From NCBI GenBank assembly GCA_022614855.1, contig JAKEHU010000006.1, positions 20,537 through 84,536 of the forward strand: a DNA stretch of 64,000 nt. The letters are read 5' to 3'. The position numbers were made by a program, and so were the translations under genes. A model generated the notes under the pieces. It did not search any database and was not told the origin of the DNA. It worked only from the letters and a program-made list of their open reading frames with translations. Of this stretch, positions 1-64,000 are shown piece after piece. This stretch comes from Chlamydiota bacterium. GTDB lineage: Bacteria > Chlamydiota > Chlamydiia > Chlamydiales > Rhabdochlamydiaceae. Positions within the stretch are counted from its first letter, which is position 1; each line of letters starts with the position of its first letter.

Positions 1-1
1 T

Positions 2-802
2 TTTAAAAATCCAGCTTCTCTTGCAACCACTGCTTCACTATTCGGTTTCGGAGAACTAACAGAAATTGATCTTCCTTATGAATATAAAGGAAATATCCCC
101 AATGATCTCTCGCAAAATAAAACAGGACTCTATTCTTTTGCCATTGGACACCACACTCTTGTCGTAACTCCCCTTCAGACAGCTGTCATGGTTTCTGCAA
201 TCGCAAATGGAGGGAAAATCATTAAGCCACAAATCATTAAATTGATCGCAGGAAAGGAGTCAAAGTTAGAAGAGGATATCTCCTTTGAGAAAGAAAATTC
301 TGCTTTTAAAGAAGAATTTTCTCTGATTGGACTTACCTTTCCTCTCTTTACTGAAGCGATAAAAAATCAGCACAACACTGCTATTTTTTCTCCTAAAATA
401 AAGATCAAAAGAACTCTGCCTTTCCCGGATCCTCTTCGCCAGATCCTATTGACTGGAATGCGACGGGTAGTAAATGGAGAAAAAGGATCAGCACGTCCTG
501 CTGTCTTTTATCCTCCACATCACAATGAACGTGGCCTAAAAGATTATATTCATTTGTCTCCCTACCTCGCTGCAAAAACAGGGACTGCACAAATATTGTA
601 TAAGCAGACAATTGATAGAGAGTCTAAAGCTGAAATGGAAGCGCACACCTCATTTGTTTGCATCTCCTTTTTGGATAGTACATTTGAAAATCCAGATCTG
701 GTAGTAGTCGTCTATTTGCGCTTTGGCAACTCTGGAAAAGTTGGCGCTCCCATCGCAGCCCGCCTCATTCAAAAATGGAGAGAGATTTGCTCTCGTAATT
801 AA
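2..802 (+). CDS. Class B penicillin-binding protein (PBP2/FtsI-type transpeptidase), C-terminal part; 5' end lies outside the window
   Basis: The frame is open from base 2 (FKNPASLATTASLFGFGELTEIDLPY...TPLQTAVMVSAIANGG). It carries the KTGT motif (AAKTGTAQ) typical of the PBP transpeptidase domain. Confidence 0.8.
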   Translation, partial: FKNPASLATTASLFGFGELTEIDLPYEYKGNIPNDLSQNKTGLYSFAIGHHTLVVTPLQTAVMVSAIANGGKIIKPQIIKLIAGKESKLEEDISFEKENSAFKEEFSLIGLTFPLFTEAIKNQHNTAIFSPKIKIKRTLPFPDPLRQILLTGMRRVVNGEKGSARPAVFYPPHHNERGLKDYIHLSPYLAAKTGTAQILYKQTIDRESKAEMEAHTSFVCISFLDSTFENPDLVVVVYLRFGNSGKVGAPIAARLIQKWREICSRN

Positions 803-811
803 CTCTCTTGT

Positions 812-1363
812 TCATGATAGCGTACCATATTTGAAAAAATGGATAAGCTGGTCCTTATCAATCTTTCTATCAGCAATGTCTATCACAATTTGTTCCAGAT
901 TTTCTATTTTAAACTTGATAGAAACTCGATTAATTTTCAAAAAAACCAATGCAATAACATATGCTGTTCTCTTGTTTCCATCATTAAACGGATGATTTCG
1001 TGTGAGATGATACAAATATACTGCGGCTTTCTCATAGACTGAGCAATAGATTTCTTTTCCACAAAATGATACTTTTGGAGCTTCTAAGAATGTGTTTACA
1101 AAGTATCATTCTAGAAATTTGAAGGAGATTTTGATGAGATTTTATCCCATTGAGCGAAGACAATATCGGGACGATGATATGGCTGAGCGAAATGGGATAA
1201 AATATCGCAAAAATCTCCTCAAAGGTCAAAATGAGACTTTGTAAACACATTCTAATGCTGAATGAAGAAGATTATAGTCTCGTATTCCAGAAAGACCACC
1301 GAATTTTTTCAACAAATCATCGTGAATTGAAATGACTTGGCTGGCCGTAAAATACTTGATCAC
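812..1363 (-). pseudogene. doc: doc (death-on-curing, Fic-fold) toxin gene interrupted by a 165-bp MITE
   Basis: A GTG at 1363 overlaps the antitoxin stop (GTGA). The N-terminal part reads MIKYFTASQVISIHDDLLKKFGGLSGIRDYNLLHSALE. The C-terminal part (812-1084) reads APKVSFCGKEIY..HLTRNHPFNDGNKRTAY, which is the Fic/Doc motif. Removing 1088-1252 plus one TAA restores a 127-codon ORF. Confidence 0.85.
1088..1252. mobile_element. MITE-like palindromic insertion (family D) inside doc
   Basis: It has perfect 17-bp terminal inverted repeats (GAATGTGTTTACAAAGT / ACTTTGTAAACACATTC). A 3-bp direct repeat TAA flanks it at 1085-1087 and 1253-1255. The interior is also palindromic and there is no plausible ORF. 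Confidence 0.85.
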
Positions 1364-1596
1364 TTATCAGCAAGCCTTTTTAGAGCATCTTTATTATTCT
1401 CAATAATTGAATCCATAACAGATTTAAGTTCACTATCTGATATATTGATTTCTTTGAGCGCGGTCGATACTCGAGAACGAATATATTCTTGCAATGTAAC
1501 TCCTTCGAGGGCAGCAATCGCTTTTAATTTTCTATGCTGGACAGTGGGAAAATCAACTGTAACCCTAGTTACTTTTTTACGTCTTTTAGTTCTCAT
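1360..1596 (-). CDS. Ribbon-helix-helix antitoxin (Phd/ParD-like) of the doc module
   Basis: It encodes 78 aa with VTVDFPTVQHRKLKAIAALEGVTLQEYI, an RHH-like N-terminus. Its stop overlaps the doc GTG start, and a GGAGG sits 5-9 nt upstream of the ATG. Confidence 0.7.
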   Translation of the reverse strand: MRTKRRKKVTRVTVDFPTVQHRKLKAIAALEGVTLQEYIRSRVSTALKEINISDSELKSVMDSIIENNKDALKRLADK

Positions 1597-1615
1597 CTCA
1601 TAGCCTCCATAAAAA

Positions 1616-1631
1616 ATATCAGTATATCAGT
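1616..1631. promoter_or_regulatory. Tandem 8-mer (ATATCAGT x2), candidate antitoxin operator
   Basis: An exact direct repeat lies about 20-35 nt upstream of the antitoxin start codon. Confidence 0.3.
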
Positions 1632-1858: not shown

Positions 1859-1868
1859 ATTATCACTT

Positions 1869-7383: not shown

Positions 7384-7628
7384 AAACCTGAACTTAATCG
7401 CAATTTGCCTTCTTTTTCTTTTTTTGGTATGATTCATTGAAAAATCTTGGGGGTAAGAGGGTGTTTAAAAAATTATCCCATAGAGAGTTTTGAGAGATTT
7501 CTGAGGAGAATTGGTGTTGCTCTATGAGGCCAATATGCGAAGCTGCATATGGCCGAAAAGAGCAGCAGCAATTATTTCGGAAAGCTCCAAAAATCTCAGG
7601 TGAGAATTTTTAAACTCCCTCTAAAATT

Positions 7629-11724: not shown

Positions 11725-13040
11725 GATTTGATGAATTTTTTATTGGGAAGAGCTTTTCCCTTCCACTTTTTTATCAACTCCTTGTCAGGATAATAAAATC
11801 GCTGATCAAGTTCAAAAGAAGAATTTTTTACCTGAATCCCAGTGATTCGATGATACTGCCTTTGATCTGCAGCAAGAAGATCTTTTTGTACTGTCTTCAA
11901 ACTGTCCTTCCCTTTTGCATTTTTCAAGGGACTAAAAATCTCTTTTTTCGGATAACAAATCACCTCGGTTTTTTTTGAAAGAAAAAGAAGATCAAAAACA
12001 TACTGTTCTGCTTTCCACACCTTTCTAGATAGAAGTTCAACCGTTTTTTGAGAAAAATGCCAAGGCAAATCAATAGTTTTTTCCGCAATTTTTCCAATAA
12101 AATCCATAGTAAAACAGAAAAGACCCGTATTGCCCAAAGAAAAGAGATACCCTCCTTCTTTTCGCTTTGCAGCTTTAATCTCCTCTCCAATCTCAGAATA
12201 TTCCACTACACAAACTCGATCTTTTTGTTTAGCAATAATGCCAATTTTTTCCTCTTCATCTTCTCGAAGAATCGCCTTTAAGGTCACATCTGCTTTTTGC
12301 CTTGCTTGGAACCCAAGTAAATTTGCGTCAAAGGGGTCTGCAAGAGGATTATCAATGGAAACAAGATGGACAAACTCAATTCCACGATCCCTCCAGTTTT
12401 CCCAAATCCCAGAATGAAAAAAATGAAAGAGCACCTTTCCATTGCCATCTGGACCTTCTCCAATTTCTTTTGAAGGATGAAAGACAAAATTTCCCTTTTC
12501 ATCAAAAAAAGGCAAAAGTGGCTGGCGAAATAAAATGAGATCTTGTTGAGATAAACCAAAATATTTTTTCCCCACTAAATATTTTTGAATGGTCGAAATA
12601 TTCAGCGGAGAAGTCATAATGGCTAAAGGAAGATTTTTTCTAGTTTTTTTCGATGCGGCTTTTGTTTTTTCACAAAAAAGTTGCAAAAGTGTCTTTTGTT
12701 TTACTAAAGAGACAGGAGTTAATGCTTTTGGCAAATTCCCTCCCAATCTTGACCCTTGACCTCCAGCTAAAATGATGCACCCAACTTTTCCTTGCCTGAT
12801 CAGCTCTTCTCCCAAATACAAATCTTCCAAATTTCCTGAAACAGCGTAAGATTCTATTGGTGCAACCGAAGGAATATCCCTTTTTGAAAAAAGAAGACCT
12901 TTCAACTGTTTCATTAAAGCAGGATCATATTGCTTTACCTGATCTAAAATCTTTTTTTGTTTAGCAAGCGAAAGAGCCTTGCATTTCTGACCGAATTCTT
13001 TTTGATCCAGCTCTTCTAAAGTATGAAATAATTCTTTCAT
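11721..13040 (-). CDS. UDP-sugar (UDP-GlcNAc) pyrophosphorylase, eukaryote-type UDPGP/UAP1 family
   Basis: The motifs are ILAGGQGSRLGGNLPKAL and LPLAIMTSPLN. A 4-nt overlap links it to gpsA downstream. Confidence 0.75.
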   Translation of the reverse strand: MKELFHTLEELDQKEFGQKCKALSLAKQKKILDQVKQYDPALMKQLKGLLFSKRDIPSVAPIESYAVSGNLEDLYLGEELIRQGKVGCIILAGGQGSRLGGNLPKALTPVSLVKQKTLLQLFCEKTKAASKKTRKNLPLAIMTSPLNISTIQKYLVGKKYFGLSQQDLILFRQPLLPFFDEKGNFVFHPSKEIGEGPDGNGKVLFHFFHSGIWENWRDRGIEFVHLVSIDNPLADPFDANLLGFQARQKADVTLKAILREDEEEKIGIIAKQKDRVCVVEYSEIGEEIKAAKRKEGGYLFSLGNTGLFCFTMDFIGKIAEKTIDLPWHFSQKTVELLSRKVWKAEQYVFDLLFLSKKTEVICYPKKEIFSPLKNAKGKDSLKTVQKDLLAADQRQYHRITGIQVKNSSFELDQRFYYPDKELIKKWKGKALPNKKFIKS

Positions 13041-14128
13041 TGTGAAAATAATACCTGTTCAACTTGGGCTGGCTGAATATTTGCAATATTTTTTTTATCT
13101 CCAAAAATGGGAATGTGGTTCAAAAGAGGATTTGGCGATGGCACATTTTGTTTCAAAATTCCCATATATGGATCTGCCCAAAGAGAGACCAATTGTAGCT
13201 GAAAAGGGACATTGAGAAAATAGGTCATCGAACTGATTCCCGAATCAAGGACAACTAAAGAACGGCAACAATTTTTTATAATGGAAAGCAGTTCAAATAA
13301 AGTTGTTTTCCCCCGTAAATCCACTAGGCAAGAATGAGAAAAAACCGGCTCCGGATGAAAACCAAATAACAAAATTTTTACTCCCGCCCTTTTTTCCAAT
13401 CTAGAAAAGAGCTCCTGCCAATGAGATATTGGCCAATTTCTCCAAGTTGCGTAATCTGTCTCCGTTTGCACATGAGCCCCGATATAAATATTCGACTTCT
13501 TTCGAAACCCCATTTTCTCGCCAAAAATTTGCTTTTTAGCATCTCCAAAATCAGCTTTTTCACCCATGTGCTCTACACATTGTTGCTCAAAAGCCGCTTT
13601 TAGATTTGCTGAAAAATCATTATTTTTTCCGAATAAAGCGGGTTCCGCAAGAAGTCTACTCCTTTCTTCTAAAGGAAATTTTTTCCAAAGGTGATCCCAC
13701 TCTTTTTGCCAGGTCAATTTTGGTGTAATCTTTCCCAATTGCCACTTGAGCCATCTTGTCGGATCAGGTTTTTCCAAAATGAGATCAAAAGATGTACGGC
13801 ATAAACCAAGTGTATGTAACGTGTGATCTAGATCAAAAGGAGTAGAGCGGTCCATTTCTGGAGCAATGATCATTTCTACTCCTCCAAGCAAAATGAATCC
13901 TTCCTTTAAATTTTCCCTCGTTAGAAAAGTAATTTTGGCGTCAGGAAGATATTTTCTAATTTGAAAACAAAGGGCATAAAGACCCAAGGCAATATCGCCA
14001 AGACCTCGATTCCACACAATCAAAAGAGATTTTTTTTCTTCTCTTTTTGCCCTTTCAAGAATCTGATCTAGGGGATTTGGGTTAAGCTTTTCCTTTATCC
14101 ATCTCAACATATTTTTTTTAAAGGCCAA
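13037..14128 (-). CDS. Glycosyltransferase family 9-like protein (divergent, with an internal insertion)
   Basis: LLIVWNRGLGDIALGLYAL resembles the GT9 N-terminal motif and VVLDSGISSM resembles the C-terminal motif. The TTG at 14128 lies in a repeat hairpin, so the ATG at 14110 is a more likely start. Confidence 0.55.
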   Translation of the reverse strand: MAFKKNMLRWIKEKLNPNPLDQILERAKREEKKSLLIVWNRGLGDIALGLYALCFQIRKYLPDAKITFLTRENLKEGFILLGGVEMIIAPEMDRSTPFDLDHTLHTLGLCRTSFDLILEKPDPTRWLKWQLGKITPKLTWQKEWDHLWKKFPLEERSRLLAEPALFGKNNDFSANLKAAFEQQCVEHMGEKADFGDAKKQIFGEKMGFRKKSNIYIGAHVQTETDYATWRNWPISHWQELFSRLEKRAGVKILLFGFHPEPVFSHSCLVDLRGKTTLFELLSIIKNCCRSLVVLDSGISSMTYFLNVPFQLQLVSLWADPYMGILKQNVPSPNPLLNHIPIFGDKKNIANIQPAQVEQVLFSQ

Positions 14129-14185
14129 AAGCTAAATTACAGAATTTGCTTCTTTCTCCTTTTTAGCCTTTAGCTTTTAGCCTTT
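14120..14185. repeat. REP-like hairpin, AAAGGCTAAAAGCTAAAG family, copy a
   Basis: AAAGGCCAAAAGCTAAA (14120-14136) pairs with TTTAGCTTTTAGCCTTT (14169-14185). It lies in the intergenic space between the two GT9 genes. Confidence 0.75.
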
Positions 14186-14188
14186 CCC

Positions 14189-15265
14189 TTATGCGCTTAT
14201 GTGCAAGGAACGGAGATCTGTTTTTTTCTTATGAAGTACTGCTATGATTTCCTGATAGACCTCTTCTGCTGTGATTTTTTTCATGCATCGAAAATCAATT
14301 GGACAGGTTCTTTGATAACAAGGCGAACACTCTACATGTTTGTGGATTACTTTTCCTGTACGATAAGGGCCTGTGACAAGTTCATTTGTAGAACCAAATA
14401 AGGCAATAATGGGCGTTCCAAGAGCATCCGCAATATGCATAGGGCCACTGTCATTTGTTAAAAGAACGCCGCATTGGCTGATGAGTGCAGCAAGTTCTCG
14501 CAGTGAAGTCAAGCCAGCTACATTGATGACACGAGAAGATAATCCCTGGCAAATTTCCTTGACAAGAGCTGTTGTTGGTTGATCTCCAAAATAAATGATA
14601 AAAATATTGGGATCAACAAGTAGCCTTTCTGTGACTTCGCGAAATCTCTCCGGAAGCCAACATTTTGCTGATCCATAAGTAGCTCCAGGATTGATTCCGA
14701 CAAGAAGACTACTGCTGGTAACCCCATGCTGTTTTAAAAGCGATTGCGCTTCCGATACTTCTCTTTTTGACAAAAATAACCTAGGAACCGCACCTGACAT
14801 GGAAATTCCAAGGGGTTCTAATAACCGTTTGTAGGTAACAACTAAATGTTGTCGATCAATTTCATCCGGAAGAAGAACAGGTTGGTTGAGCAAAAATCTT
14901 CTCCCATTACAATCATAGCCAAGGCGGTTTTTTACCTTCCCCTGCCAAAACCACCAGGCAGATGAAAAAGAATGGGTGAGCAAAATTCCCAAATCATATT
15001 TGCCATGGCGCAATTTTTCTATGATGTTTTTCTTATCGCTGCGGCGGGAAAAGCTGCTGCCTTTGCTAAAGCAAAAAAGTTCATCAATTTCGGGATCTTC
15101 TTTAAGCAAATCGCACACAGGCGTGCGACACATTGCGGTAATAGTTGCATCTGGATAGGCCTTTCTCAAATCGGTGAGTACCGGGGTTGCCATGACCATA
15201 TCCCCGATCCAATTTGGCATGCGGACAATGATATTTCTAAAAATCATTCCTTCTAGCGATGGCAT
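14189..15265 (-). CDS. ADP-heptose:LPS heptosyltransferase (GT9, WaaF/RfaF-like)
   Basis: The motifs are IIVRMPNWIGDMVMATPVL and NDSGPMHIADALGTPIIALFGST. Met7 at 15247 is an alternative start. Confidence 0.8.
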   Translation of the reverse strand: MPSLEGMIFRNIIVRMPNWIGDMVMATPVLTDLRKAYPDATITAMCRTPVCDLLKEDPEIDELFCFSKGSSFSRRSDKKNIIEKLRHGKYDLGILLTHSFSSAWWFWQGKVKNRLGYDCNGRRFLLNQPVLLPDEIDRQHLVVTYKRLLEPLGISMSGAVPRLFLSKREVSEAQSLLKQHGVTSSSLLVGINPGATYGSAKCWLPERFREVTERLLVDPNIFIIYFGDQPTTALVKEICQGLSSRVINVAGLTSLRELAALISQCGVLLTNDSGPMHIADALGTPIIALFGSTNELVTGPYRTGKVIHKHVECSPCYQRTCPIDFRCMKKITAEEVYQEIIAVLHKKKTDLRSLHISA

Positions 15266-19063: not shown

Positions 19064-19689
19064 ATAAAAACCAGCGAGCAAAGTTCATCCAAAAGAAATT
19101 AAAAGAGCTTTTCCCCCATCCTGAAATTCCTTTGCACCACAGGAATTCTTATACTCTTCTCATTGCAGTATTGCTTTCGGCCCAATGTACAGATGCAAGA
19201 GTCAATAAAATTACTCCACTTCTTTTTGCAAAAGCAGATAGTCCAAAAAAAATGATACAACTGGATATCAAAGAAATCGAAGAGATCATCAGACCTTGTG
19301 GCCTCGGCAAAAATAAAGCAAAAGCAATTTGGCACCTTTCGAAAAAAATTCTAGAAGATCACAAAGGGAAAGTCCCAAATACTTTTGAAGAATTAGAAGA
19401 GCTCCCTGGTGTAGGCCATAAAACGGCATCGGTTGTCATGTCTCATGCATTTGATAAACTTGCCTTTCCTGTAGATACACACATCCATCGCTGTGCAAAA
19501 AGGTGGGGTTTAAGCAATGGAAAAAGTGTTGCTCAAACAGAAAAAGATTTGAAGAAACTTTTTCCAAAAAAAGATTGGCATCTTCTCCATCTGCAAATCA
19601 TCTATTACGCGCGCAAATACTGTCCTGCAAGAGGCCACAAAATAGCTCACTGTCCTATCTGTAGAGAAATGCTAAAAGCTAAAGTATAA
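19060..19689 (+). CDS. nth: Endonuclease III (HhH-GPD DNA glycosylase, 4Fe-4S)
   Basis: LLSAQCTDARVN, LPGVGHKTASVV, VDTHIHR and C..C..C. Confidence 0.9.
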   Translation: MNKNQRAKFIQKKLKELFPHPEIPLHHRNSYTLLIAVLLSAQCTDARVNKITPLLFAKADSPKKMIQLDIKEIEEIIRPCGLGKNKAKAIWHLSKKILEDHKGKVPNTFEELEELPGVGHKTASVVMSHAFDKLAFPVDTHIHRCAKRWGLSNGKSVAQTEKDLKKLFPKKDWHLLHLQIIYYARKYCPARGHKIAHCPICREMLKAKV

Positions 19690-19764
19690 AGGCTAAAAAA
19701 GAAGAGAGAAATGGACTACAAGAAACAAATTCTCCGATTTTAGCCTTTAGACTTTAGCTTTTAG
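19670..19764. repeat. REP-like long hairpin, AAAGGCTAAAAGCTAAAG family, copy c
   Basis: The 28-nt arms (19670-19697 and 19737-19764) have one mismatch. The element lies between the convergent genes nth and psd, and the last nth codons and its stop lie in the left arm. Confidence 0.8.
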
Positions 19765-19773
19765 CTTTTGCCT

Positions 19774-20688
19774 TTACAAAGGGGAGAGGGCTCTGCCAAG
19801 CGATTCACCCATTTTGCCAAGGACCTCCATTCTTTTTTGCGATGCCTCTAAAAGATCCTGGTCAAACTGAATGCGAAAAGGTTCAAAAAGAAGGATGATG
19901 CAAGATCCTCCAAAGGAAAAATATCCCTTTTCATCTCCCTTAGCGTAGTGTTCTTCTGGAATGTAGGTCTGATGAATCGATCCCACATAAGTAGCGCCGA
20001 TTTCAATGAAAAGAACCGGACCAAAATTTTTTGTTTGAAGTTGTGTGACCACCCTTTTGTTTTCCGTCAAAATGTGAATATTTTTGCAAAGTGCAATGGG
20101 ATTTACAGAAAAAAGAGCGCCATTTATGGCTTTTCCATTTCCGGGAACGCAATTGCAGGGAAAATGAAATCGATGATAATCGACAGGAGCTAGCCTTGCA
20201 ATCACCATGGACCCATGCAGATATTTGTGTGCAATCGTCTCATTTTTAATCAACTCTTCTAGAGAAAATTTCTTTCCTTTTACAATAAATCCATCGCTTC
20301 TTTGAACCTCAGGAAATACCAGATACCTTCCGTCCGCCGGTAGGATTGCTACATCATTGCCATTGGTAATTGACCTTGCAGAAGGTTTTAATTTTCGAAT
20401 GAAAAAATCATTAAACGAAGAAAAGGAAGAAACAGGGTCTAAAAATTCCGTTGTATCAATTTGAAAACGGCGGATAAATGGGCCAATTTTGTATCTGCTC
20501 CATTTGCTCTTTTGAAATTTTCCATACATTTTAGAAAAAAGCGAAATGCGTGAAATAAGTCCCAAAAAAAGGAGGGAAAAAATCCAGGAAATGGGATTAT
20601 TGCCATAAAGAAGATTAAGAAAAAATTTGCCATAAACTCTTTCTACTTCTACTTTTTTGTTCTGCCGATTAAGATAGCGAATTTCCAT
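19774..20688 (-). CDS. psd: Phosphatidylserine decarboxylase proenzyme
   Basis: The N-terminus RYLNRQNKKVEVERV is typical of chlamydial Psd as I recall it. Other motifs are FNDFFIRKLKP, LAPVDYHRFHFP and GYFSFGGS (cleavage site). Confidence 0.9.
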   Translation of the reverse strand: MEIRYLNRQNKKVEVERVYGKFFLNLLYGNNPISWIFSLLFLGLISRISLFSKMYGKFQKSKWSRYKIGPFIRRFQIDTTEFLDPVSSFSSFNDFFIRKLKPSARSITNGNDVAILPADGRYLVFPEVQRSDGFIVKGKKFSLEELIKNETIAHKYLHGSMVIARLAPVDYHRFHFPCNCVPGNGKAINGALFSVNPIALCKNIHILTENKRVVTQLQTKNFGPVLFIEIGATYVGSIHQTYIPEEHYAKGDEKGYFSFGGSCIILLFEPFRIQFDQDLLEASQKRMEVLGKMGESLGRALSPL

Positions 20689-20849
20689 GAACCTATCCGC
20701 AAATTCTAAAAATTTGATTTTTGTAAGATTTTTCCATCATATTTTTATGCCACTTTGAAGGACATACTTGCAAAGTCAAGCCGAGAAGTGGCATAAAAAT
20801 ATGACGAAAAAGATACGAAAAGCAGGTTTTAGAATTTGCGGATAGGTTC
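20689..20849. mobile_element. MITE-like palindromic element, family GAACCTATCC, full copy A (161 bp)
   Basis: The ~25-bp terminal inverted repeats are GAACCTATCCGCAAATTCTAAAA / TTTTAGAATTTGCGGATAGGTTC. It is highly similar by eye to the reverse complement of 46899-47059. It starts immediately after the psd start codon. Confidence 0.9.
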
Positions 20850-32118: not shown

Positions 32119-32283
32119 AACCTGAGTTTTGGGTTTAATTCGCTCAGAATCAACGATCTTTTCAAGGTCTTTCTCATTTTTTTCCTCGAAAATAGCGCCT
32201 TCGGCTATTATCTTCGGATAAAAATGAAAAAGCTCATTGAAAATCTCTATTGATTCAGAGGAAAGAAACCCAAAACTCAGGTT
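32119..32283. mobile_element. MITE-like palindromic element, family CTGAG, copy 2 (165 bp, inverted relative to copy 1)
   Basis: Its termini are AACCTGAGTTTTGGG...CCCAAAACTCAGGTT. It ends 3 nt before the ATG at 32287. Confidence 0.85.
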
Positions 32284-33039: not shown

Positions 33040-33206
33040 ACCTGAGTTTTTGGGGTTTTTCATGGAGAATTGGTGCAGATTGTGAGACAATTTCTTTGGA
33101 TCTAGACGAATCCAATAGTCGAAGGAGCTTATGGATGAGGAGAGATCCAAAGAAATTGGCCGCAAAATGCGGCAAGGCTCTATGAAAAAACCCAAAAACT
33201 CAGGTT
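33039..33206. mobile_element. MITE-like palindromic element, family CTGAG termini, copy 3 (168 bp, divergent interior)
   Basis: Its termini are AACCTGAGTTTTTGGGG...CCCAAAAACTCAGGTT. An internal inverted repeat pairs CAATTTCTTTGGATCT with AGATCCAAAGAAATTG. It begins on the last base of the upstream stop codon. Confidence 0.8.
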
Positions 33207-40531: not shown

Positions 40532-41782
40532 ATGCCTACAAAACTATTTGCAATAAAGATTGTAAAAACACTTGCACGAGCAGGACACATTGTCTACTTT
40601 GCAGGAGGCTGGGTAAGAGATTTTCTCATGCAACATCCATCCGATGATATCGATATTGCAACAAGTGCATCTACAGATGAAGTACAAAAACTCTTTCCAA
40701 AAACAATTCCTGTCGGCGTTTCTTTTGGCATCGTCATTGTTGTGCAGAATGGCCATCAATTTGAAGTAGCAACATTTAGAAAGGATAGAGGCTATGTAGA
40801 TGGAAGAAGACCTACCGGAATCGAACCTGCTACTCCTGAAGAAGATGCCCTTCGGCGCGATTTTACGATAAATGGAATGTTTTATGATCCGCTCAATGAG
40901 AAATTATATGATTACGTTGGAGGAGAAGCGGATATCAAAAAAAAGATCATCCGAGCAATTGGAAATCCGCATGAAAGGTTTGGTGAAGATAGGCTTCGCA
41001 TGATGCGGGCAGTGCGCTACTCAACCAGATTTAATTTCCCTATTGAAAGTGAAACTTTGCAAGCAATTCTTATCCATGCGAAAGAGCTTTTTCCTTCTGT
41101 AGCCATGGAAAGGGTTTGGCAAGAGTTTAAAAAAATGTCTCAATTTGCACATTTTGATAGAGGTTTAGCCACTCTCCATAAGCTGCAACTTTTGTCTACA
41201 ATTTTTCCAGAGCTTGCTAATGTCTCTTTAGAAGAAGTTGAAAAGAGGGTACGTTTTATGAGACAATTTCCAAAAAATACCCCTACTTTTGTAGAAGTTT
41301 TAGAGTTATTTCCCGACCATTCCTTCGAACAAATTATTCAGCTCTGCGACTATCTCAAGCTATCCAAAAAAGAAAAAGCATTTGCTCAGTTTTATTACCA
41401 CTCGCAAAATCTTCTCAACATGCCTAAATCCTGGCTGGATAAATTAGAAAAGGTGGAGTGGGCCCATTTTTATGCAAATCACTACTCCGATCTCTGTCTG
41501 CAAGTGCATGCGGCAAGAAAAGAAGCTGAGGAAAGAAGAGAATTTATCGATCATCATACAAGACAAAGAGAGTTGTTGAAAGAGCCAATTTTACGAATTC
41601 AATCAGCTAATCCCATTGTTAAAGCAGACCATTTGATGGAAGAGGGGATTAAACCCGGAAAAAATCTGGGAAAATTGCTCAAAGAAGCGGAGAGAATCTC
41701 TGTGAATGAACAGTTAGAAGATAGAAAAAAGATCATTGAAAAATTAAAAAAAACTCCACTATGGCAAGATGAACGAAGCTGA
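40532..41782 (+). CDS. CCA-adding enzyme / poly(A) polymerase family tRNA nucleotidyltransferase
   Basis: YFAGGWVRDFLM..DDIDIAT, RRDFTINGMFYD and EDRLRMMRAVRY. Confidence 0.85.
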   Translation: MPTKLFAIKIVKTLARAGHIVYFAGGWVRDFLMQHPSDDIDIATSASTDEVQKLFPKTIPVGVSFGIVIVVQNGHQFEVATFRKDRGYVDGRRPTGIEPATPEEDALRRDFTINGMFYDPLNEKLYDYVGGEADIKKKIIRAIGNPHERFGEDRLRMMRAVRYSTRFNFPIESETLQAILIHAKELFPSVAMERVWQEFKKMSQFAHFDRGLATLHKLQLLSTIFPELANVSLEEVEKRVRFMRQFPKNTPTFVEVLELFPDHSFEQIIQLCDYLKLSKKEKAFAQFYYHSQNLLNMPKSWLDKLEKVEWAHFYANHYSDLCLQVHAARKEAEERREFIDHHTRQRELLKEPILRIQSANPIVKADHLMEEGIKPGKNLGKLLKEAERISVNEQLEDRKKIIEKLKKTPLWQDERS

Positions 41783-42641
41783 ATCCCCTCCTTTTATCAA
41801 TGGAGTTCTTCTCATTATCTTTGCCTGGGTTTTCTTCACTGTAATGATTGCAATTTCTCGATATGTAAGTCCTTTGACTTCCATTCCAATTGTACTTCTC
41901 TTTCAAAATGGAATCAGTTTGCTTTTCATTCTTCCCTGGATGATCGAAAAAGGAAAAACAAGTTTTCACACTCCAAAATACCATCTTCTCATTCTAAGGA
42001 CGGTAGCCGGTTATTTAAACTTCACATTCATCTTTCTTGCAGTACAAAGAACATCACTAGTCAACACACTTTTGCTCAGCAATAGCGCCCCGATTTTCAT
42101 CCCTTTGATCATCTGGATTTGGCGGCGCATTGCAGTCGGCTACAAACTTTGGCTTGGAATTATCATAGGATTTATCGGAATTGGGCTGATTTTAAAACCG
42201 GATATTGATTTCATGAATACTGGGGTTCTTTTTGCCCTTGGATCTGCAATTTCTTTTTCCATCTCTATGATTGCGCAGAGAAGATTGATTAAAACAGAAC
42301 CCAAATACACGATTCTATTTTACTATTTTCTAGCAGGAACGCTCATCAGCTTCCCCTTTGCCATTTACACATGGAACATTCCCTTAACAATATTGCCTCT
42401 TTTAATTTTAATAGGTGTGCTGTCTGTGATTGGACAACTAGCATTTCTACAAGCCCTCCAATTTGGGAAGCCCTCTGCTTTAAGTCCTTTCAACTACATA
42501 TCAGTTGTATATGCAGCTATCATAGAATGGATCATTTGGAACCAATTTCCCGATCTTTTCTCGATCCTTGGCATCATTCTCATTTCCGTAGGAGGGATTC
42601 TTACAATGATTTATGAGAATAAACCTATCCGCAAATTCTAA
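41769..42641 (+). CDS. EamA/DMT-family transporter (10 TM)
   Basis: The protein has a two-fold hydrophobic repeat architecture. The last six codons and the stop (KPIRKF*) are encoded by a MITE terminal repeat. Confidence 0.65.
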   Translation: MNEAESPPFINGVLLIIFAWVFFTVMIAISRYVSPLTSIPIVLLFQNGISLLFILPWMIEKGKTSFHTPKYHLLILRTVAGYLNFTFIFLAVQRTSLVNTLLLSNSAPIFIPLIIWIWRRIAVGYKLWLGIIIGFIGIGLILKPDIDFMNTGVLFALGSAISFSISMIAQRRLIKTEPKYTILFYYFLAGTLISFPFAIYTWNIPLTILPLLILIGVLSVIGQLAFLQALQFGKPSALSPFNYISVVYAAIIEWIIWNQFPDLFSILGIILISVGGILTMIYENKPIRKF

Positions 42642-42697
42642 AACTTGCTTTTCGTATCTTTTTCGTCATATTTTCATGCCATTTCTTGGCCTACTTA
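42622..42697. mobile_element. MITE family GAACCTATCC, half copy B (left arm only)
   Basis: AACCTATCCGCAAATTCTAAAACTTGCTTTTCGTATCTTTTTCGTCATATTTTCATGCCATTTCTTGGCCTACTTA is near-identical (one mismatch seen) to 46900-46975. It then diverges. Confidence 0.85.
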
Positions 42698-42703
42698 AAT
42701 GGT

Positions 42704-44955: not shown

Positions 44956-44985
44956 TGCCCGTCTTAAAAGACGGGCATTTTTATT
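44956..44985 (+). terminator. Second tandem intrinsic terminator
   Basis: A 9-bp stem (TGCCCGTCT / AGACGGGCA) with loop TAAA is followed by TTTTTATTTT. Confidence 0.65.
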
Positions 44986-45081
44986 TTCTTCTCCTTTGTG
45001 TTCTTCGTGAGCTCTGTGGTTTAAATCCGGATAAGTAAAAAGATTATTACTACAGAGATCACAGAGGACACAGAGAGAAAA
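44985..45081. repeat. Inverted pair of CACAGAG 9-mer arrays
   Basis: The right arm is TACAGAGAT-CACAGAGGA-CACAGAGAG. The left arm is its degenerate reverse complement (..TTCTTCGTGAGCTCTGTGGTT). The same 3x9 array recurs at 54985-55020. Confidence 0.7.
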
Positions 45082-45098
45082 TAGGATTGGAATAAGAA

Positions 45099-46898
45099 TC
45101 ATAGATTTAGATTAATGATGAGAAGTGTGATGTCATCTTCTTGGTCTAGTCCAGAAGAAAAATTTTGCACCTCGTGGATGATTATATTCACAAGGTCTTG
45201 TGATTTTTTACTTTGTGCGTGTTTGATCAATTCTTTCAATCGATCTATGCCAAAGGTCTCTTTTTCTCGATTTCTAGCTTCAATAATTCCATCCGTATAA
45301 AGAATGAGAAAATCTCCTTTTCGAAGTGTCATTTCTTGAATGGAAAGATGGTCGAGTTCCATTACTCCCAATGCAATACCATCTCCTCTTAACTGGTGCA
45401 TCGTTCCATCTGACCTACGCAAAATTGCCGGCAAATGTCCTGAATTATGATAATAGAGTTTTTTTTGTCTTCGATCAAAAAGCCCTACCCAGGCTGTTAC
45501 AAAATTATGTGAACCGACCGTATCGAGGTACAATAAATTATTTGTCTCTAAAAGAATTCTGTCCAAACTATGTTTTTCCTTGGCTAAACTTCTGAGCGTG
45601 CTTCTCACCGAAAGAGAAAAAAGAGATGCACCGATTCCCTTTCCCGATCCATCTGCAATAGAAAAAAGAAGAGTATTGTCATCTGGCGCAAACAGATCAT
45701 AAAAATCTCCTGCAACTGTTTTTGCCGGAATGAATTTTGTTCCAATATCTATTCCAGGAATTTGAGGAATTTCTTTGGGAAAAAGAGTTTTTTGAATTTC
45801 ATGGCCAATTTTTAATTCATTTTCTAAAAGTTCTCTTGAAATTTTTTCACTTTTTGCTGTTTCCATTTGCGTTAAGAGGTCTTCAATCATCTGATTAAAT
45901 CCCCTTCCTAAAACATTGATCTCAAATCCCATCTTTTCCTTTTCATACCTCGCATTCAAATCTCCATGTTGTACTTTCTCCATAACAGAAAATAGTTGTT
46001 TCAAGGGTCTGCCCATTTTTATGGTCATGATGCAAGCAGTTCCACCTCCTATGAAAAGTAGAATGATAAATAGACTGGAAATGGGATAAAGAAAGTGGTT
46101 TACCGCAAAAAGATCGATTCCCAAATGAGAAAGATTTGCCAAAAGAGAAAATGAAGCGTCTTCAATGGGAATTTCAATGGCTAACCGACTTTCTCGATTT
46201 GTAAAAACATCCCAAATTGAAAGGGAAAACATCCACTTGTTTAACTCATTAGCATGAAAAATCTCCATTTTTTCTCTTTCAAATTGTGGCTTGGTGGTAA
46301 GCACAATTTGGCCAGATGGATCGACCAAAGAAAGGTTAAAATCGCCTAAAACATCGCCGAAAGCTGCAATATTTTCTAACCAACTTTGCCCAGCAGTGAT
46401 AAAAGCTAGACATTTTTTTTTCGTTTTATCTGTTTTTAAAAGAACAAGCTCAGTTGAGATAAAAGAGAGTTCACGAGAAATAAAAACGAGCGTGCCTCTT
46501 TCGGAAGCTAAAGAAAGCTCTTCAGAAAAAAAAGTTTTTCCTATTAACGATGGTTCGCTGCCATTTTTACAAATCCATTTGCCCTCTTCCAAAGAAAAGG
46601 AAAAAAGACCGCTTAATTTTAACTTCTGAGCAAGAACCTCAAAAGAGACGGCTCCATTTTCAATCAAATTTGCATCGAGAGATCTGAGTTCAATCCATTG
46701 ATTGATCAGGTGCGCATGTGCTTTAGCAAAAGAGGAAAGTTCAAAAAAAAGTGCACGCATTCTTGTTTGATAATCTCGATGCCACAAAACGATGCTATGA
46801 ACCACTAAAGGGACAATGATAAATGCAACACAGATAAGCGCGACTCGAAGTCCTAGCGAGCCGACCAGATGTCGAAGGGCAATTCTTTTTCTTTCCAT
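45099..46898 (-). CDS. rsbU: RsbU-like sensor PP2C phosphatase (periplasmic domain + HAMP + SpoIIE/PP2C)
   Basis: Two TM segments flank a ~250-aa extracytoplasmic region. A HAMP segment (MGRPLKQLFSVMEKVQHGDLNARY) is followed by PP2C motifs (VAGDFYD, IADGSGKG, LYTDGIIEA). Confidence 0.85.
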   Translation of the reverse strand: MERKRIALRHLVGSLGLRVALICVAFIIVPLVVHSIVLWHRDYQTRMRALFFELSSFAKAHAHLINQWIELRSLDANLIENGAVSFEVLAQKLKLSGLFSFSLEEGKWICKNGSEPSLIGKTFFSEELSLASERGTLVFISRELSFISTELVLLKTDKTKKKCLAFITAGQSWLENIAAFGDVLGDFNLSLVDPSGQIVLTTKPQFEREKMEIFHANELNKWMFSLSIWDVFTNRESRLAIEIPIEDASFSLLANLSHLGIDLFAVNHFLYPISSLFIILLFIGGGTACIMTIKMGRPLKQLFSVMEKVQHGDLNARYEKEKMGFEINVLGRGFNQMIEDLLTQMETAKSEKISRELLENELKIGHEIQKTLFPKEIPQIPGIDIGTKFIPAKTVAGDFYDLFAPDDNTLLFSIADGSGKGIGASLFSLSVRSTLRSLAKEKHSLDRILLETNNLLYLDTVGSHNFVTAWVGLFDRRQKKLYYHNSGHLPAILRRSDGTMHQLRGDGIALGVMELDHLSIQEMTLRKGDFLILYTDGIIEARNREKETFGIDRLKELIKHAQSKKSQDLVNIIIHEVQNFSSGLDQEDDITLLIINLNL

Positions 46899-47059
46899 GA
46901 ACCTATCCGCAAATTCTAAAACTTGCTTTTCGTATCTTTTTCGTCATATTTTCATGCCATTTCTTGTCCTACTTATATAAGTATGTCCTTCGAAGTGGCA
47001 TGAAAATCTGATGAAAAAATCTTACAAAAATCAAACTTCTAGAATTTGCGGATAGGTTC
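46899..47059. mobile_element. MITE-like palindromic element, family GAACCTATCC, full copy C (161 bp)
   Basis: It has the same terminal repeats as copy A. It fills almost the entire divergent rsbU/trmH intergenic region and starts immediately after the rsbU start codon. Confidence 0.9.
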
Positions 47060-54394: not shown

Positions 54395-54522
54395 GTTCGG
54401 TATAGATATAAATTAATGAAACATATTCATCAATTTTTTTCATTAGACTTGTTTCAAAACCCGCTTTACTTGGGAAAATGCGGCTTGATAAAAATTTCCT
54501 AAATTTCTATTTGATGAAATAT

Positions 54523-54683
54523 GGTAGTCCGCAACATGTAAGGCTAATAAATTGCGAAGTGGAGCGGTTCAAAGGCAAGTCAAATGACGAGTTCATAGCG
54601 AAAAAAGCTATGGACGAGGAATTTGACGAAGCATATGAATCGCTTACACGAGCAGGAATTAGCCTTACATGTTAAGGACTACC
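54523..54683. mobile_element. MITE-like element, family GGTAGTCC (161 bp) with a 7-bp target-site duplication
   Basis: The 26-nt terminal inverted repeats are GGTAGTCCgcAACATGTAAGGCTAAT and ATTAGCCTTACATGTTaaGGACTACC, sharing 24 of 26 positions. It is flanked by the direct repeat GAAATAT at 54516-54522 and 54684-54690. An internal hairpin pairs GTCAAAT..CATAGC with GCTATG..ATTTGAC. Confidence 0.8.
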
Positions 54684-54688
54684 GAAAT

Positions 54689-54982
54689 ATGAATCTATCC
54701 ATTTTCTTTATTCTCTTCGTGATTTTGTCCACCACGTTGTTTGGAGGAAAAAAGATATCCTCTTGTAAACCTCCCACTTCTAAGCAAGAAAAATGGCTCT
54801 TTTCCCAAATTGATTCTGAAAGCCAAAAGCTTTACCTCTCTCTACCTTGTGAAGGAAAAAAGCTAGTTATGAGACTTGCAAAAGAAAGTTGCATAGAAGA
54901 CAAGAATATCGCTGTTCATTTAGTAGTAAAGCGAATTGCGCAAAAAAAAGCAGAAAATCGCAATTACGTAACATCTCAATAA
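54689..54982 (+). CDS. Small secreted hypothetical protein (97 aa)
   Basis: It has a signal peptide (MNLSIFFILFVILSTTLFG). The start is chosen at the ATG at 54689, whose first two bases lie in the MITE target duplication. Confidence 0.45.
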   Translation: MNLSIFFILFVILSTTLFGGKKISSCKPPTSKQEKWLFSQIDSESQKLYLSLPCEGKKLVMRLAKESCIEDKNIAVHLVVKRIAQKKAENRNYVTSQ

Positions 54983-56767: not shown

Positions 56768-56841
56768 TGCACCGGAGAGGATTCGAACCTCTGACCTCAC
56801 GGTTCGTAGCCGTGTACTCTATCCAGCTGAGCTACCGGTGC
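56768..56841 (-). tRNA. tRNA-Arg (anticodon ACG)
   Basis: The reverse complement, GCACCGGTAGCTCAGCTGGATAGAGTACACGGCTACGAACCGTGAGGTCAGAGGTTCGAATCCTCTCCGGTGCA, folds as a canonical cloverleaf. The anticodon loop is CTACGAA and the T-loop TTCGAAT. CCA is not encoded. Confidence 0.95.
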
Positions 56842-62100: not shown

Positions 62101-62791
62101 AAGAGGTGCAAAAGCAGGAGGGCCAAACTATCTTTGGCAATTTATGACTCCTGTACAAGCCGGGCTTCCTCAAGAAAAAATTCCCATTTCAAACCCTGTA
62201 AACCAGTTGACCAACTCGATCGAAAAAATTCCCCTAAGCGGCGAACAGTTAGGTTTATGGTATGCGAGTATTTCCAACTATGCCTATTGGGCAAAAAAAT
62301 TTGCACGCGATGCAGACCCTTCAAAAATACTTGGCCAAGATAATCTTTTCCGATATCGTCCACGAAAAAATATCCTTTTTCGCATTCAGCAGAGCGATGC
62401 AAAACTCGATGTATTAAGAGTCTTTGCTGCGGCCTTATCTTGCTCTATTAAAATGGAGATCAGTTGGGATGAAGAGAATAATGCAGATCTACAGAGTTGT
62501 GATTGGAAATCCCTTATCCCGGATTTCGAATTTCATATTGAAAATGAAGATAGGTTCATCACAAGGCTTAAAACAACAAAAATTGAGCGAGTGCGCCTTC
62601 TTTCCACTCCTTCAAAAAAAGTGCAAGAAACCTCTGCTGAAAAGGCAATTTTCCTAGATCATGCTCCCGTTCTAGCCAATGGAAGATTTGAACTCCTCCA
62701 TTATTTGAGGGAAATTGCCATCAGCATCGACTACCATCGCTATGGTAACCTCGGCTTAAGGGAAGTAGAGCAAAGGGCAGAGATTCTCTAA
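59165..62791 (+). CDS. putA: Bifunctional proline dehydrogenase / delta-1-pyrroline-5-carboxylate dehydrogenase
   Basis: At 1208 aa, it joins a PRODH barrel (EMLEGMAD, YLIRRLDENT) to an ALDH domain (ETGGKNAMII, FGHSGQKCSAAS, ELFGPVL). Confidence 0.92.
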   Translation: MSEKKKVSKKILKAKELLYKVHGTSLSNAEREKKSIELASFLLDEALHQQTFKEKLKVAELARMMDDPKGKAFTTYMTDQCFRSKKSSRISDQLIYLLHKMGTPKYLGPIKKSQLILFKFLGKPFSFLLVPLATYMLRRATSSVILPGEMGKLSEHMHKRRAQGVRLNLNHLGEAILGEEEARRRLHVYLHDLKQDDIEYVSIKISTIFSQIHIVDWDKTLKILSERLRELYRVAMKHTFKAQDGTERGKFVNLDMEEYRDLHLTKDLFKKVLDEEEFLSFSAGIVLQAYLPDSFEIFKEIIEWAKKRVSRGGAPVKVRIVKGANLAMEQVEASLKKWPQAPFKTKREVDANYKRMVHFGSTPENARAVHLGIASHNLFDISYAMLLRAENKLEKEVSFEMLEGMADHMRRAVQELVGDILLYCPVATKEDFQSAIAYLIRRLDENTGAENFLRHSFGLKPGTEEWMDQIDLFTNSCRQKDHISSAPRRNQNRHDQPSHLEMEELFENEADTDFSLFQNQKWAAGIVKKWQKKPFDPIPLVIGGKEIHQENPEGIGVDPSHPKKDPLYHFSLASAEQIDEALEIAKSEELDWAKTPSIERCKLISDVAKMMRKERGDLIGVMMRDGGKTVLEAEPEVSEAIDFAEYYLRSMKKMHGCEDIEWHPKGTILVTPPWNFPISIPAGCICAALVTGNCVIFKPAPEAVVSGWILANLFWKAGISKKVLQFVNCEDEPIGSKLIADPRVNGVILTGATSTARLFLKLRPSLDLTAETGGKNAMIITAMADRDLAIKDLINSAFGHSGQKCSAASLAILEAEVYDDPHFRRQLKDAVESLKVGSPFDLSAKIVPLIREPGEALLRGLTRLDRKEEWLVKPKQDSDNPQLWTPGVKFGVKERSFMHQTELFGPVLGVMRAKNLDHAIYLANGTPYGLTSGIHTLDEREQKKWMEEIEAGNLYVNRGITGAVVRRQPFGGCKASGFGRGAKAGGPNYLWQFMTPVQAGLPQEKIPISNPVNQLTNSIEKIPLSGEQLGLWYASISNYAYWAKKFARDADPSKILGQDNLFRYRPRKNILFRIQQSDAKLDVLRVFAAALSCSIKMEISWDEENNADLQSCDWKSLIPDFEFHIENEDRFITRLKTTKIERVRLLSTPSKKVQETSAEKAIFLDHAPVLANGRFELLHYLREIAISIDYHRYGNLGLREVEQRAEIL

Positions 62792-63267
62792 CTATTCTTT
62801 TCTCTAGGTTTATTTTTCTTTTCCTCCCTTTCTTTCTTTTTTTGCTCTTCTCTTTCTCTCTTTTCTTTCTCCCTTGCTTCTCTTTCCTTTTTTAAGGGGC
62901 AATCTTCATTTTTGCAGATAAGAAAATATTCCAATTTACATCCAGGACATGTTGGTAAAACTTTAATTTGAAAATTTCTTGTTACATTTAATTCAACTGA
63001 TGGGAGCTTGACATAACACCCCTTTTCATCGGAAAAGAGTTTTGGAATGAGGAGATAATCATCACTATTGTTTAAAACAAGAAATATTCCCTTTTCGGTT
63101 GGATAAATATGATCTTCCTTTAAATAAATCTTATTTTGATCAAATTCCCTTACACAAGTTGCCTGATTTTTGATGATTTCTTCCATTAGAAAACCATTTT
63201 GATCATTATTGGCAAATGCTAAGATAGAAAATGTGATAAATAAAAAAACAAACTTTTTCACAATCAT
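62788..63267 (-). CDS. Secreted hypothetical protein with CxxC..C..C knuckle and K/E/R-rich tail
   Basis: It has a signal peptide (FVFLFITFSILAFA), then PTCPGCK...CKNEDCP, and a C-terminal KKEREAREKEKREREEQKKKEREEKK. Confidence 0.45.
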   Translation of the reverse strand: MIVKKFVFLFITFSILAFANNDQNGFLMEEIIKNQATCVREFDQNKIYLKEDHIYPTEKGIFLVLNNSDDYLLIPKLFSDEKGCYVKLPSVELNVTRNFQIKVLPTCPGCKLEYFLICKNEDCPLKKEREAREKEKREREEQKKKEREEKKNKPREKNS

Positions 63268-64000
63268 ATGAAAACTCCTAAAAAAAAAATTTCAGTTTAT
63301 CCTTTTAAGTTCTTTCTTATTTTTATTTCAATTGGTTTCTTTTTTTCTTCTTGTCAAAGAGATTGTTCGGATCATAAAAAGTTTAATCTCACAAAAGAAG
63401 AAAGGGTTTGGATGGAAGAATTTTTTAATGATCTCATGTTCTTTGAACGCGGTATTTATACTCTTTGGGGCTCAAAACCGATGACCCGAGTAGTATTAGA
63501 GCATTTCACACAGGAAGAGCTAGAAAATCGCATTTTAACAGAAGAAGAAAAAAAAACAGCTTTTTCACTCGCAAAAGATTATACACTTCCGGAAAACTGG
63601 GAAAAATGGAAAAAAATCAGTTCAAGGTTTCCCCTGAAACGGTACCTTCTTTTCCAATCAGACTGGTATAACGATCCAAAAGCTACATATGTTTACTTTG
63701 TAGATATCCTTAAAACGACCTTGGTGATTCAAGAAAACTACGATACATTTCGCAATGCCATTGGATTTGATTTTGATCCAACCCAGGTTGTCTTTGAAAT
63801 GCAAGATAAGAATTCAAAAATCTGGGAAAAGATACGGGGGGGAGGACATGCTCTTTTATGGGGAATTTTATTTGGATATGGGAAGAAAAACTCCTATGCA
63901 TTCCATTGGAAATATTTTAAAGAGGGGATAAACAATTTTTTTCCTTCTATTAAAAATAAATTCAGTGAACATCCCTTTCGCGGTCTTTCAAATGTTCGCA
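63268..64000 (+). CDS. Hypothetical lipoprotein, 3' end outside the window (absent from the supplied ORF track)
   Basis: The ATG at 63268 opens a frame with no stop to the window end: MKTPKKKISVYPFKFFLIFISIGFFFSSCQRD (lipobox-like FSSC)...HALLWGILFGYGKKNSYAFHWKYF. Confidence 0.55.
   Translation, partial: MKTPKKKISVYPFKFFLIFISIGFFFSSCQRDCSDHKKFNLTKEERVWMEEFFNDLMFFERGIYTLWGSKPMTRVVLEHFTQEELENRILTEEEKKTAFSLAKDYTLPENWEKWKKISSRFPLKRYLLFQSDWYNDPKATYVYFVDILKTTLVIQENYDTFRNAIGFDFDPTQVVFEMQDKNSKIWEKIRGGGHALLWGILFGYGKKNSYAFHWKYFKEGINNFFPSIKNKFSEHPFRGLSNVR

Follow-up and report, generated by a model that had tools for sequence, protein, structure and literature searches.

The DNA examined here, referred to as the window, is a 64,000-nucleotide stretch of the genome of a Chlamydiota bacterium of the family Rhabdochlamydiaceae (GenBank assembly GCA_022614855.1, contig JAKEHU010000006.1). 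It contains short repeats which are palindromic along their whole length and which are dispersed throughout the genome. [quoted passage not shown] They measure 159–171 bp, within the limit of approximately 600 bp for MITEs, contain no transposase coding sequence, have terminal inverted repeats (TIRs) that run through the whole element, are flanked by direct duplications and occur as approximately 140 dispersed full copies together with fragments. They were very probably mobilised by insertion sequences (ISs), the transposases of which have since been lost or were never fixed. An earlier account of the window made from its letters alone (the sequence-only reading) had described non-autonomous, MITE-like repeats of long-palindrome design, and the TIRs, the duplications and the lack of a transposase gene bear this out.

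The elements would be short DNA transposons without genes, near-complete palindromes of 160–170 bp, formerly moved by the DDE transposases of full-length ISs. For superfamily I (fam0, famC, famD and clusters 1, 2, 8 and 10; GAG/GAA ends with TAA/TTA or AT), the enzymes would be of the NF033580-type of IS5, with DUF4096 and DDE_Tnp_1 domains. For the TA-flanked families (famB and clusters 3, 5, 9 and 12), IS630/Tc1-type enzymes are the most likely candidates. With the transposases lost or never fixed, most copies would now be immobile. Stop codons and the AT of ATG fall within the TAA, TA and YAT|R targets; duplication of the target would restore the codon, and selection in an 88%-coding genome would purge almost all other insertions. 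Stop-free families with a length that is a multiple of three, duplication counted, could survive in frame as inserts of 55–58 residues. The hairpin itself would be under selection, as its arms change together; it might aid the meeting of the ends for transposition, or allow the arms to correct each other.

Genome-wide abundance, size and families

The genome is a 44-contig draft of 1.507 Mb, rated 99% complete and 88% coding. Palindromes were counted by gapped self-BLAST, since an ungapped scan misses known copies in the window where indels shift the arms. The clean palindromes were then clustered into families; this replaced a single-linkage clustering of raw repeat segments, which had joined 165 of them into one group through composite segments and contig ends. 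In all statistics the copies of one family are non-independent samples, and element boundaries are uncertain by approximately 1 nt.

Genome-wide, 200 whole-length palindromes were found, of which 138 measure 150–200 bp and 116 measure 160–175 bp, with a sharp mode at 165–170 bp. The strikingly uniform size claimed for the window is borne out. The palindromes cluster into 15 multi-copy families and 12 singletons, and nearly all medians fall at 163–173 bp, with one at approximately 181 bp. Even the simpler ungapped scan returned 44 such palindromes in the genome and none in a shuffled genome.

Genome-wide copy number had been set beforehand as the test of whether the repeats are dispersed or local duplicates, and the counts are far above those of the window. 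The largest family, fam0, has 72 loci on 34 of the 44 contigs, mostly contig-internal (43–44 of them full length), and the other window families have 3–20 loci each. All repeats combined make up 5.5% of the genome, and the full elements alone occupy approximately 14% of the 167 kb outside long open reading frames (ORFs). Of the 88 contig ends, 61 have further copies elsewhere (approximately 44 of them many copies), for the most part as these elements, so that the fragmentation of the assembly is due mainly to MITEs and not to ISs or rRNA operons. A draft in which many contigs end in these repeats might raise the concern of assembly artefacts, or of local duplicates without meaning for the genome as a whole. 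The number and contig-internal position of the fam0 loci make the chance of this negligible, as does the finding of the same families in named metagenome-assembled genomes (MAGs) and in independent genomes from other genera.

Most copies of fam0 are 85–92% identical to the window copy, and just one pair reaches 99%. Taken with the lack of a transposase on board, this does not favour the extensive recent activity that had been proposed for the repeats.

Global alignment of the family consensuses against shuffles resolved three groups. Group I has GA..-type ends and unites fam0 with clusters 1, 2, 4, 8, 10, 15 and 16 (z up to 11); group II, to which famB and related families belong, has AAC(G/C)NGAGTT ends (z up to 15); the ends in group III are of the form TATAC... 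(z up to 17). Outside these groups, clusters 5, 9, 11 and 26 are orphans. A central motif, CATATGCGAAGCTGCATATG, is common to families with different ends and even with different duplication types. The description of the families as unrelated holds in part: apart from the orphans, the clusters belong to approximately three superfamilies. By consensus similarity the window would hold four or five independent lineages, not six.

The elements of clusters 1 and 3 are open in one or two frames and give rise to spurious ORFs of 100–115 codons (C10:5716-6082, C31:148240-148569, C6:3944-4249 and C27:221-550). These would probably be annotated as hypothetical proteins by gene callers.

Termini, target duplications and related insertion sequences

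Five types of target duplication were found, sorted by family: TAA/TTA, AT, TA, any 3 bp (NNN) and 7 bp. TAA/TAA or TTA/TTA pairs flank the families with GAG/GAA ends, which include cluster 1 (171 bp) and clusters 2, 4 and famC (165 bp); the copies that carry them number 8/11, 5/7, 3/3, 5/8 and 2/3 per family. AT/AT at a YAT|R target is characteristic of fam0 (33 of 44 copies) and cluster 8 (161 bp). A few copies of this type have the non-palindromic direct flanks GT/GT or AA/AA, and the flank is therefore a true 2-bp duplication and not a longer TIR. TA flanks are found in clusters 3, 5, 6/7, 9 and 12 (159–166 bp). The TA/TA pair is present in 5 of 6 copies of cluster 5, 6 of 7 of cluster 9, all 5 of cluster 12 and 7 of 12 of cluster 6/7, TA being palindromic and so indistinguishable from an extension of the TIR. 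Cluster 11 (165 bp) has a 3-bp duplication of any sequence, and cluster 26 one of 7 bp. Some families have TAAC...GTTA ends, and integron attC sites were considered and rejected: there are no arrays, most families are without those ends, and duplications are present.

The fam0 end was scanned for in 185,579 species genomes with a pattern of 16 specified bases, for which most matches are due to chance. Among chlamydial MAGs it was found in Rhabdochlamydiaceae SMAG_U5417, Chlamydiales MFD00008.bin.2.19, a “Chlamydiae” MAG and a Waddliaceae MAG, and the elements are again 161 bp long. Of the 40 related genomes compared, 8 carry fam0; all belong to other genera, and one to another family. The same end also occurs, unexpectedly, in many Chloroflexota, where it bounds MITEs of 67–184 bp with TTA, TAA or GTA duplications. 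In two cases (GAACCTATCCG.AAATTC) it bounds a full Chloroflexota IS, L028 (938 bp) and L126 (1445 bp), both with TAA duplications. The ORFs of L028 and L126 encode IS5-family transposases (NF033580, E 1.8e-63 and 2e-60, respectively) composed of DUF4096 and DDE_Tnp_1.

This end sequence crosses phyla: the 18-nt fam0 end is identical to the TIR that IS5-family elements and their short MITEs have in Anaerolineales and Caldilineaceae, and it appears in a few archaeal MAGs. The loci are L028:2842-3779, L126:756-2200 and approximately 20 others in Chloroflexota (L020, L049, L064, L099, L118 and so on).

Closer relatives supply further partners. Genes of the NF033580-type are present in 91 of 201 genomes of the order, in elements of approximately 850–870 bp. 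One of these ISs, L133 of the Chlamydiales, has the end GAGACTGTCGTCGAATTAA directly after TAA, and cluster 1 matches both of its ends with 92–95% identity over 20–25 nt. Another, L131, an IS5-family element from a genome of the same family, has the TIR GAGCCTGTTTAAAAT after TAA, and the ends of famD are similar. Because its ends match those of NF033580-type ISs, superfamily I is assigned to IS5. GAG ends with a 3-bp TNA duplication presumably define the IS1031 group of IS5 in ISfinder. The GAG/GAA ends with TAA or TTA agree with the description of the IS1031/IS427 subgroups, namely GA/GG ends and a duplication of 2–4 bp, typically TNA. The proposal that cognate transposases with matching TIRs be sought was thus rewarded for superfamily I, outside the genome itself. 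In a genome of another chlamydial family (G132), an 856-bp IS5-type element is nested in a palindromic MITE of approximately 160 bp of the AACGCGAG family (L141:1300-2314).

Genes of the IS630-type (PF13358) occur in 58 of the 201 genomes of the order. The TA flanks are what links the TA-type families to IS630.

Absence of a transposase

As the sequence-only reading had stated, no transposase lies within the 64-kb window. A profile search of the genome gave no match to DDE_3, DDE_Tnp_1, NF033580, PF13358, rve, Mutator-type or Y1_Tnp (PF01797) models, so that none of the cognate families tested is present in the genome either. A tblastn search of the genome with pieces of Chloroflexota and chlamydial transposases also returned nothing. 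One weak match to PF01609 (DDE_Tnp_1) at C29:3857-4084 (E 0.04) was rejected as spurious, since it contains six stops and lies on a MITE. A multi-copy IS hidden in the assembly gaps is unlikely, because MITEs account for the contig ends. In a genome without a transposase for them, most copies are probably fossils.

The genome has just one mobile-element gene, an intact TnpB-like ORF of 360 aa on contig 14 (L180:1450-2532, minus strand; PF07282, E 3.4e-22). It adjoins miaA, and a copy of fam0 lies approximately 400 bp away. The presence of this gene, the very low folding energy of the whole-length hairpins and the covariation of their arms would suit repetitive extragenic palindromic (REP)-type or palindrome-associated transposable element (PATE)-type hairpins, moved by an HUH (Y1) enzyme of IS200/IS605 or by a REP-associated tyrosine transposase (RAYT) that recognises the hairpin and not terminal repeats. 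This is very improbable, as the genome has no Y1_Tnp domain, the elements are 4–8 times longer than REPs, which are palindromes of 20–40 bp, their ends match DDE-type IS5 elements and they show clear direct target duplications. IS200/IS605 elements are not known to produce a target duplication.

Repeats of this kind had been thought unexpected for an obligate intracellular lineage, but the host is an environmental chlamydia and not a member of the Chlamydiaceae, and IS5- and IS630-type genes are frequent in its order, as counted above. IS expansions have been published for the Rhabdochlamydiaceae, with 415 transposase genes in R. oedothoracis (PMC9723776).

Insertion at start and stop codons

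Insertions at starts, at stops and inside a gene had been noted in the window, and the pattern extends to the genome. Among 141 full elements, an end lies within 8 nt of a start codon in 23% and of a stop codon in 28%, compared with approximately 4% each for random intergenic points. For fam0, the flanking AT and the next base form ATG in 22 of 44 copies. In 19 of these 22 the ATG opens an ORF of at least 80 codons, compared with only 16% of all ATG trinucleotides. The N-termini that follow are canonical for RpsS, LeuS, YebC, RplR, MurE and DapB; the ATGs are hence genuine starts, at which the element has taken the place of the gene's entire leader. Copies of fam0 at starts amount to 42%, against the 20% expected if non-coding YATR sites were used equally (p = 0.001). 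The boundary pattern is explained for the most part, though not entirely, by the target motif together with purifying selection. Stop codons are restored in a similar way by TAA duplications. As regards a Shine-Dalgarno sequence, the fam0 end (GGATAGGTTC-ATG) offers only 3-mers (GGA, AGG) and no 4-mer core.

In-frame insertions

Six of the 141 full copies lie within genes and leave the reading frame unbroken. The hosts are the GT9-like glycosyltransferase of the window, MraY, a P-type ATPase, a fused E1 dehydrogenase and two proteins without known function. In the GT9-like ORF (13037-14128, minus strand; Pfam Glyco_transf_9), the stop-free cluster 9 copy is read as residues ~157–214. Orthologs in 22 related genomes are approximately 55 residues shorter, and residues 1–157 and 211–363 are contiguous in them, which represents the empty site. 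Comparison of MraY with PDB 8g01 similarly shows a gap at the insert. Three hosts carry cluster 10 in the same frame, with the peptide RTYPNKISNEIS...NIEGN. At least one stop-free frame is present in 43% of elements and in 13% of shuffles; clusters 9, 10 and 12 have one in every case. The element with its duplication is a multiple of three in approximately 9 of 13 families.

Conservation of the hairpin and the common size

Two window elements folded as single-stranded DNA gave −40.7 and −43.2 kcal/mol (z of approximately −11 and −10 against shuffles). In 37 copies of fam0, 97.8% of arm cells are paired and 18 of 47 pairs have changes on both sides. Double changes occur in 130 cells; column shuffles gave no more than 58, and slid partners no more than 23. 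A DDE transposase requires no more than the terminal 20–30 bp. The covariation therefore indicates that complementarity has been maintained well beyond this length.

At fam0 pairs 43-119, 44-118 and 70-90, G-T wobble far outnumbers A-C mismatch on the reference strand. This excess would fit a strand-specific hairpin, or it may reflect a few inherited changes.

Structured RNAs encoded by the host, or hairpins with a regulatory role (such as small RNAs, terminators or RNase III sites), spread by recombination and kept for their function without being mobile, would also preserve pairing through compensatory changes. The strand bias of the wobble pairs and the location at gene boundaries, including sites between convergent genes, suit such a role. 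The copies, however, carry target duplications and share TIRs with ISs; some lie inside ORFs, one of them disrupting doc; both orientations relative to neighbouring genes occur; and no Rfam family matches the elements. A host-RNA origin is unlikely on these grounds, and later co-option of individual copies is possible.

IS-mobilised MITEs are the preferred explanation, and several observations weigh against it. For the TA-type, NNN-type and 7-bp families, no autonomous partner with matching ends was found, and among the IS630 ends that could be defined in 16 loci, a small sample of the IS630 elements of the order, none matches the TA-type families. Copies of fam0 duplicate AT whereas the ISs with the same TIR duplicate TAA, and because of this difference it is the TIR that ties fam0 to IS5. 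An IS-rich genome of the same family (G074) contains at least 19 internally deleted IS5-type derivatives of 218–382 bp, none of which is palindromic. In a 44-contig draft, it is possible that a single transposase copy resides on an unbinned contig or a plasmid. Finally, the DDE mechanism accounts neither for the common size nor for a palindrome over the whole length. Examples of the G074 derivatives are C1:90823-91043, 91161-91502 and 173326-173602; candidate IS matches in G074 run into the hundreds, a profile in keeping with that published for R. oedothoracis.

The enzyme does not fix the size, because the Chloroflexota MITEs with the same TIR, like the G074 derivatives, span a broad range of lengths. 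As for the one size shared across transposition chemistries, a hairpin or cruciform might join the ends of a very short element, arm-against-arm correction might maintain the design, or the families might descend from one successful backbone with replaced ends. The instability of long palindromes may impose an upper limit on size.

Complementary to mobilisation by ISs is the tentative proposal that one shared constraint, and not ancestry, is responsible, such that only frame-keeping, stop-free hairpins of approximately 165 bp persist in environmental chlamydiae. Five duplication types are represented, yet all families measure 159–171 bp; the enzyme leaves the size free, most families are divisible by three in length with the duplication counted, stop-free frames are enriched, and the arms co-vary. 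The largest family does not conform, as fam0 measures 161 + 2 = 163 bp and is no multiple of three. The uncertainty of the boundaries and the non-independence of copies within a family further count against this proposal, and the similarity across families allows for common descent with end replacement. It is conceivable, though doubtful, that environmental chlamydiae impose one design on their MITEs, and that those of at least three unrelated transposase superfamilies converged on a hairpin of approximately 165 bp with an 80-bp stem, kept by compensatory change, often stop-free and divisible by three in length, and docking on the AT of ATG or on TAA such that both kinds of codon are rebuilt.

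Elements of the window and their surroundings

The window holds nine full elements and one half element of the whole-length palindromic type, with the full elements measuring 161–166 bp, and two short REP-like families (Table 1). A repeat scan and self-BLAST gave each element an end-to-end self-complementarity of 73–79%. The two REP-like families reported by the sequence-only reading are both real: the (A/G)GCTAAA heptamer hairpin has 31–37 loci genome-wide, and the CACAGAG hairpin is the second.

Table 1. Repeat elements of the 64-kb window
Element	Position	Length	Ends	Flanks or duplication	Remarks
famC palindromic MITE	1088-1252	165 bp	GAATGTGTTTAC...	3-bp TAA, 1085-1087 + 1253-1255	
famB copy 1	1695-1857	163 bp	ACCTGAGTTTTG...	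TA/TA	84% identity to 32120-32282, inverted orientation
famD (cluster 4) MITE	7457-7621	165 bp	GAGGGTGTTTAAAAA	TAA/TAA	IS5-type
Cluster 9 MITE	13494-13656 (-)	163 bp + 2-bp duplication = 165 bp	GACTTCTTTCG...		Inside GT9-like ORF
REP-like (A/G)GCTAAA heptamer array	14108-14195				From repeat scan
REP-like heptamer hairpin	19653-19775				Arms 19644-19705 + 19731-19792; between convergent genes
fam0 MITE	20689-20849	161 bp	GAACCTATCCGCAAATTC	AT/AT	
famB copy 2	32120-32282	163 bp		TA-type	
famB-like copy 3 (cluster 7)	33040-33205	166 bp		TA-type	
fam0 half copy (one arm)	42619-42700				97% identity to one arm of 46899-47059
CACAGAG-type short inverted repeat, second REP-like family	44980-45087				17 mostly short loci genome-wide
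fam0 MITE	46899-47059	161 bp		AT-type	
Cluster 26 MITE	54523-54683	161 bp	GGTAGTCC...	7-bp GAAATAT, 54516-54522 + 54684-54690	

The famC copy is a destructive insertion beside an intact antitoxin. It breaks the doc (Fic/DOC) toxin gene of a phd/doc-type toxin-antitoxin pair (812-1626). The N-terminal piece of doc (1226-1363, minus strand) runs into the element, and the other piece (815-1105, minus strand) retains a Pfam Fic match (E 2.7e-12). The antitoxin ORF upstream (1360-1626, minus strand) is still open.

Both full fam0 copies adjoin start codons. The left AT of the first belongs to the start codon ATG of psd (19774-20688, minus strand; Pfam PS_Dcarbxylase). That of the second is part of the ATG of an rsbU-like PP2C phosphatase gene (45099-46898, minus strand; SpoIIE and HAMP), and this element occupies most of the divergent intergenic region, which extends to 47083. 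The half copy adjoins the stop of the ORF at 41769-42641.

Two famB-type copies bracket a metallophosphoesterase gene. Copy 2 stops 4 nt short of its ATG (32287), and the alignment to the Metallophos profile pairs residue 1 of the protein with position 1 of the profile. Copy 3 begins at the final base of its TGA stop codon (33037-33039). Downstream of copy 3, the longest ORF (33131-33628) opens at an ATG within the element, which may serve as the source of the start and leader for this gene.

The cluster 26 family has three loci genome-wide, and the right GAAATAT duplicate of the window copy overlaps an ATG at 54689. The sole Rfam match in the window is a tRNA gene (56768-56841, minus strand).

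Significance and comparison with known systems

Full-text literature searches found ISs described in Chlamydiae, and no description of MITEs or palindromic elements in the phylum. Chlamydiae are unmentioned in a 2024 review of prokaryotic MITEs. The elements thus add a class of mobile DNA to this phylum. On a practical level, they break short-read assemblies, create spurious ORFs and substitute for the 5′ leaders of essential genes, which has consequences for annotation and expression modelling. Their shared size poses a clean, testable question on the limits of very short transposons. Should the convergence of unrelated superfamilies be true, selfish DNA would have adapted to a genome with almost no spare room, and essential genes, among them rpsS, leuS, murE and rplR, would have their entire 5′ leader from fam0.

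Among known systems, the IS5-family MITEs and the eukaryotic Tourist/PIF-Harbinger MITEs are similar in their GAG/GAA... ends, 3-bp TAA/TTA duplications and ends shared with elements that encode IS5 transposases. They are also non-autonomous, multi-copy and found at AT-rich targets. Tourist/PIF-Harbinger MITEs make a 3-bp TWA duplication. The chlamydial elements differ in being whole-length palindromes of very narrow length in a host without the transposase, and in the case of fam0 the target is AT at YAT|R and not TWA.

The bacterial MITEs Correia (NEMIS, Neisseria), ERIC, RUP and Nezha can affect the expression of neighbouring genes. They resemble the present elements in their TA-type targets, their intergenic abundance and their location near gene ends (PMC10969869). 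Each is one family per genome with the ends of one IS family, whereas here a single size and hairpin design are common to at least 15 families with at least four or five duplication types.

REP/RAYT repeats and the PATEs derived from IS200/IS605 are likewise hairpin-forming and intergenic, and the heptamer and CACAGAG families of the window are REP-sized. Unlike these systems, the genome has no Y1/RAYT gene, and its 160–170-bp elements have duplications and TIRs, with no GTAG/CGTC tag seen.

The palindromic elements of Rickettsia (RPEs) were reportedly described by Ogata et al. in 2000. They are palindromic repeats of approximately 150 bp, comprise several families, reside in an obligate intracellular host with no transposase on board and, as here, are translated as in-frame inserts in unrelated housekeeping genes. 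This in-frame behaviour has been summarised for RPE-1 to RPE-10 (PMC10969869). The likeness drawn here is one of behaviour. The host belongs to another phylum, and the chlamydial elements differ in having clear TIRs, target duplications that can be defined and an IS5-type partner that can be identified. Just 6 of 141 copies are intragenic here, and most dock on start or stop codons. The chlamydial elements represent a second, independent case of the Rickettsia phenomenon, selfish DNA translated within housekeeping proteins. Because the ends, duplications and candidate transposase can be recognised, the mechanism is testable here, unlike that of the RPEs.

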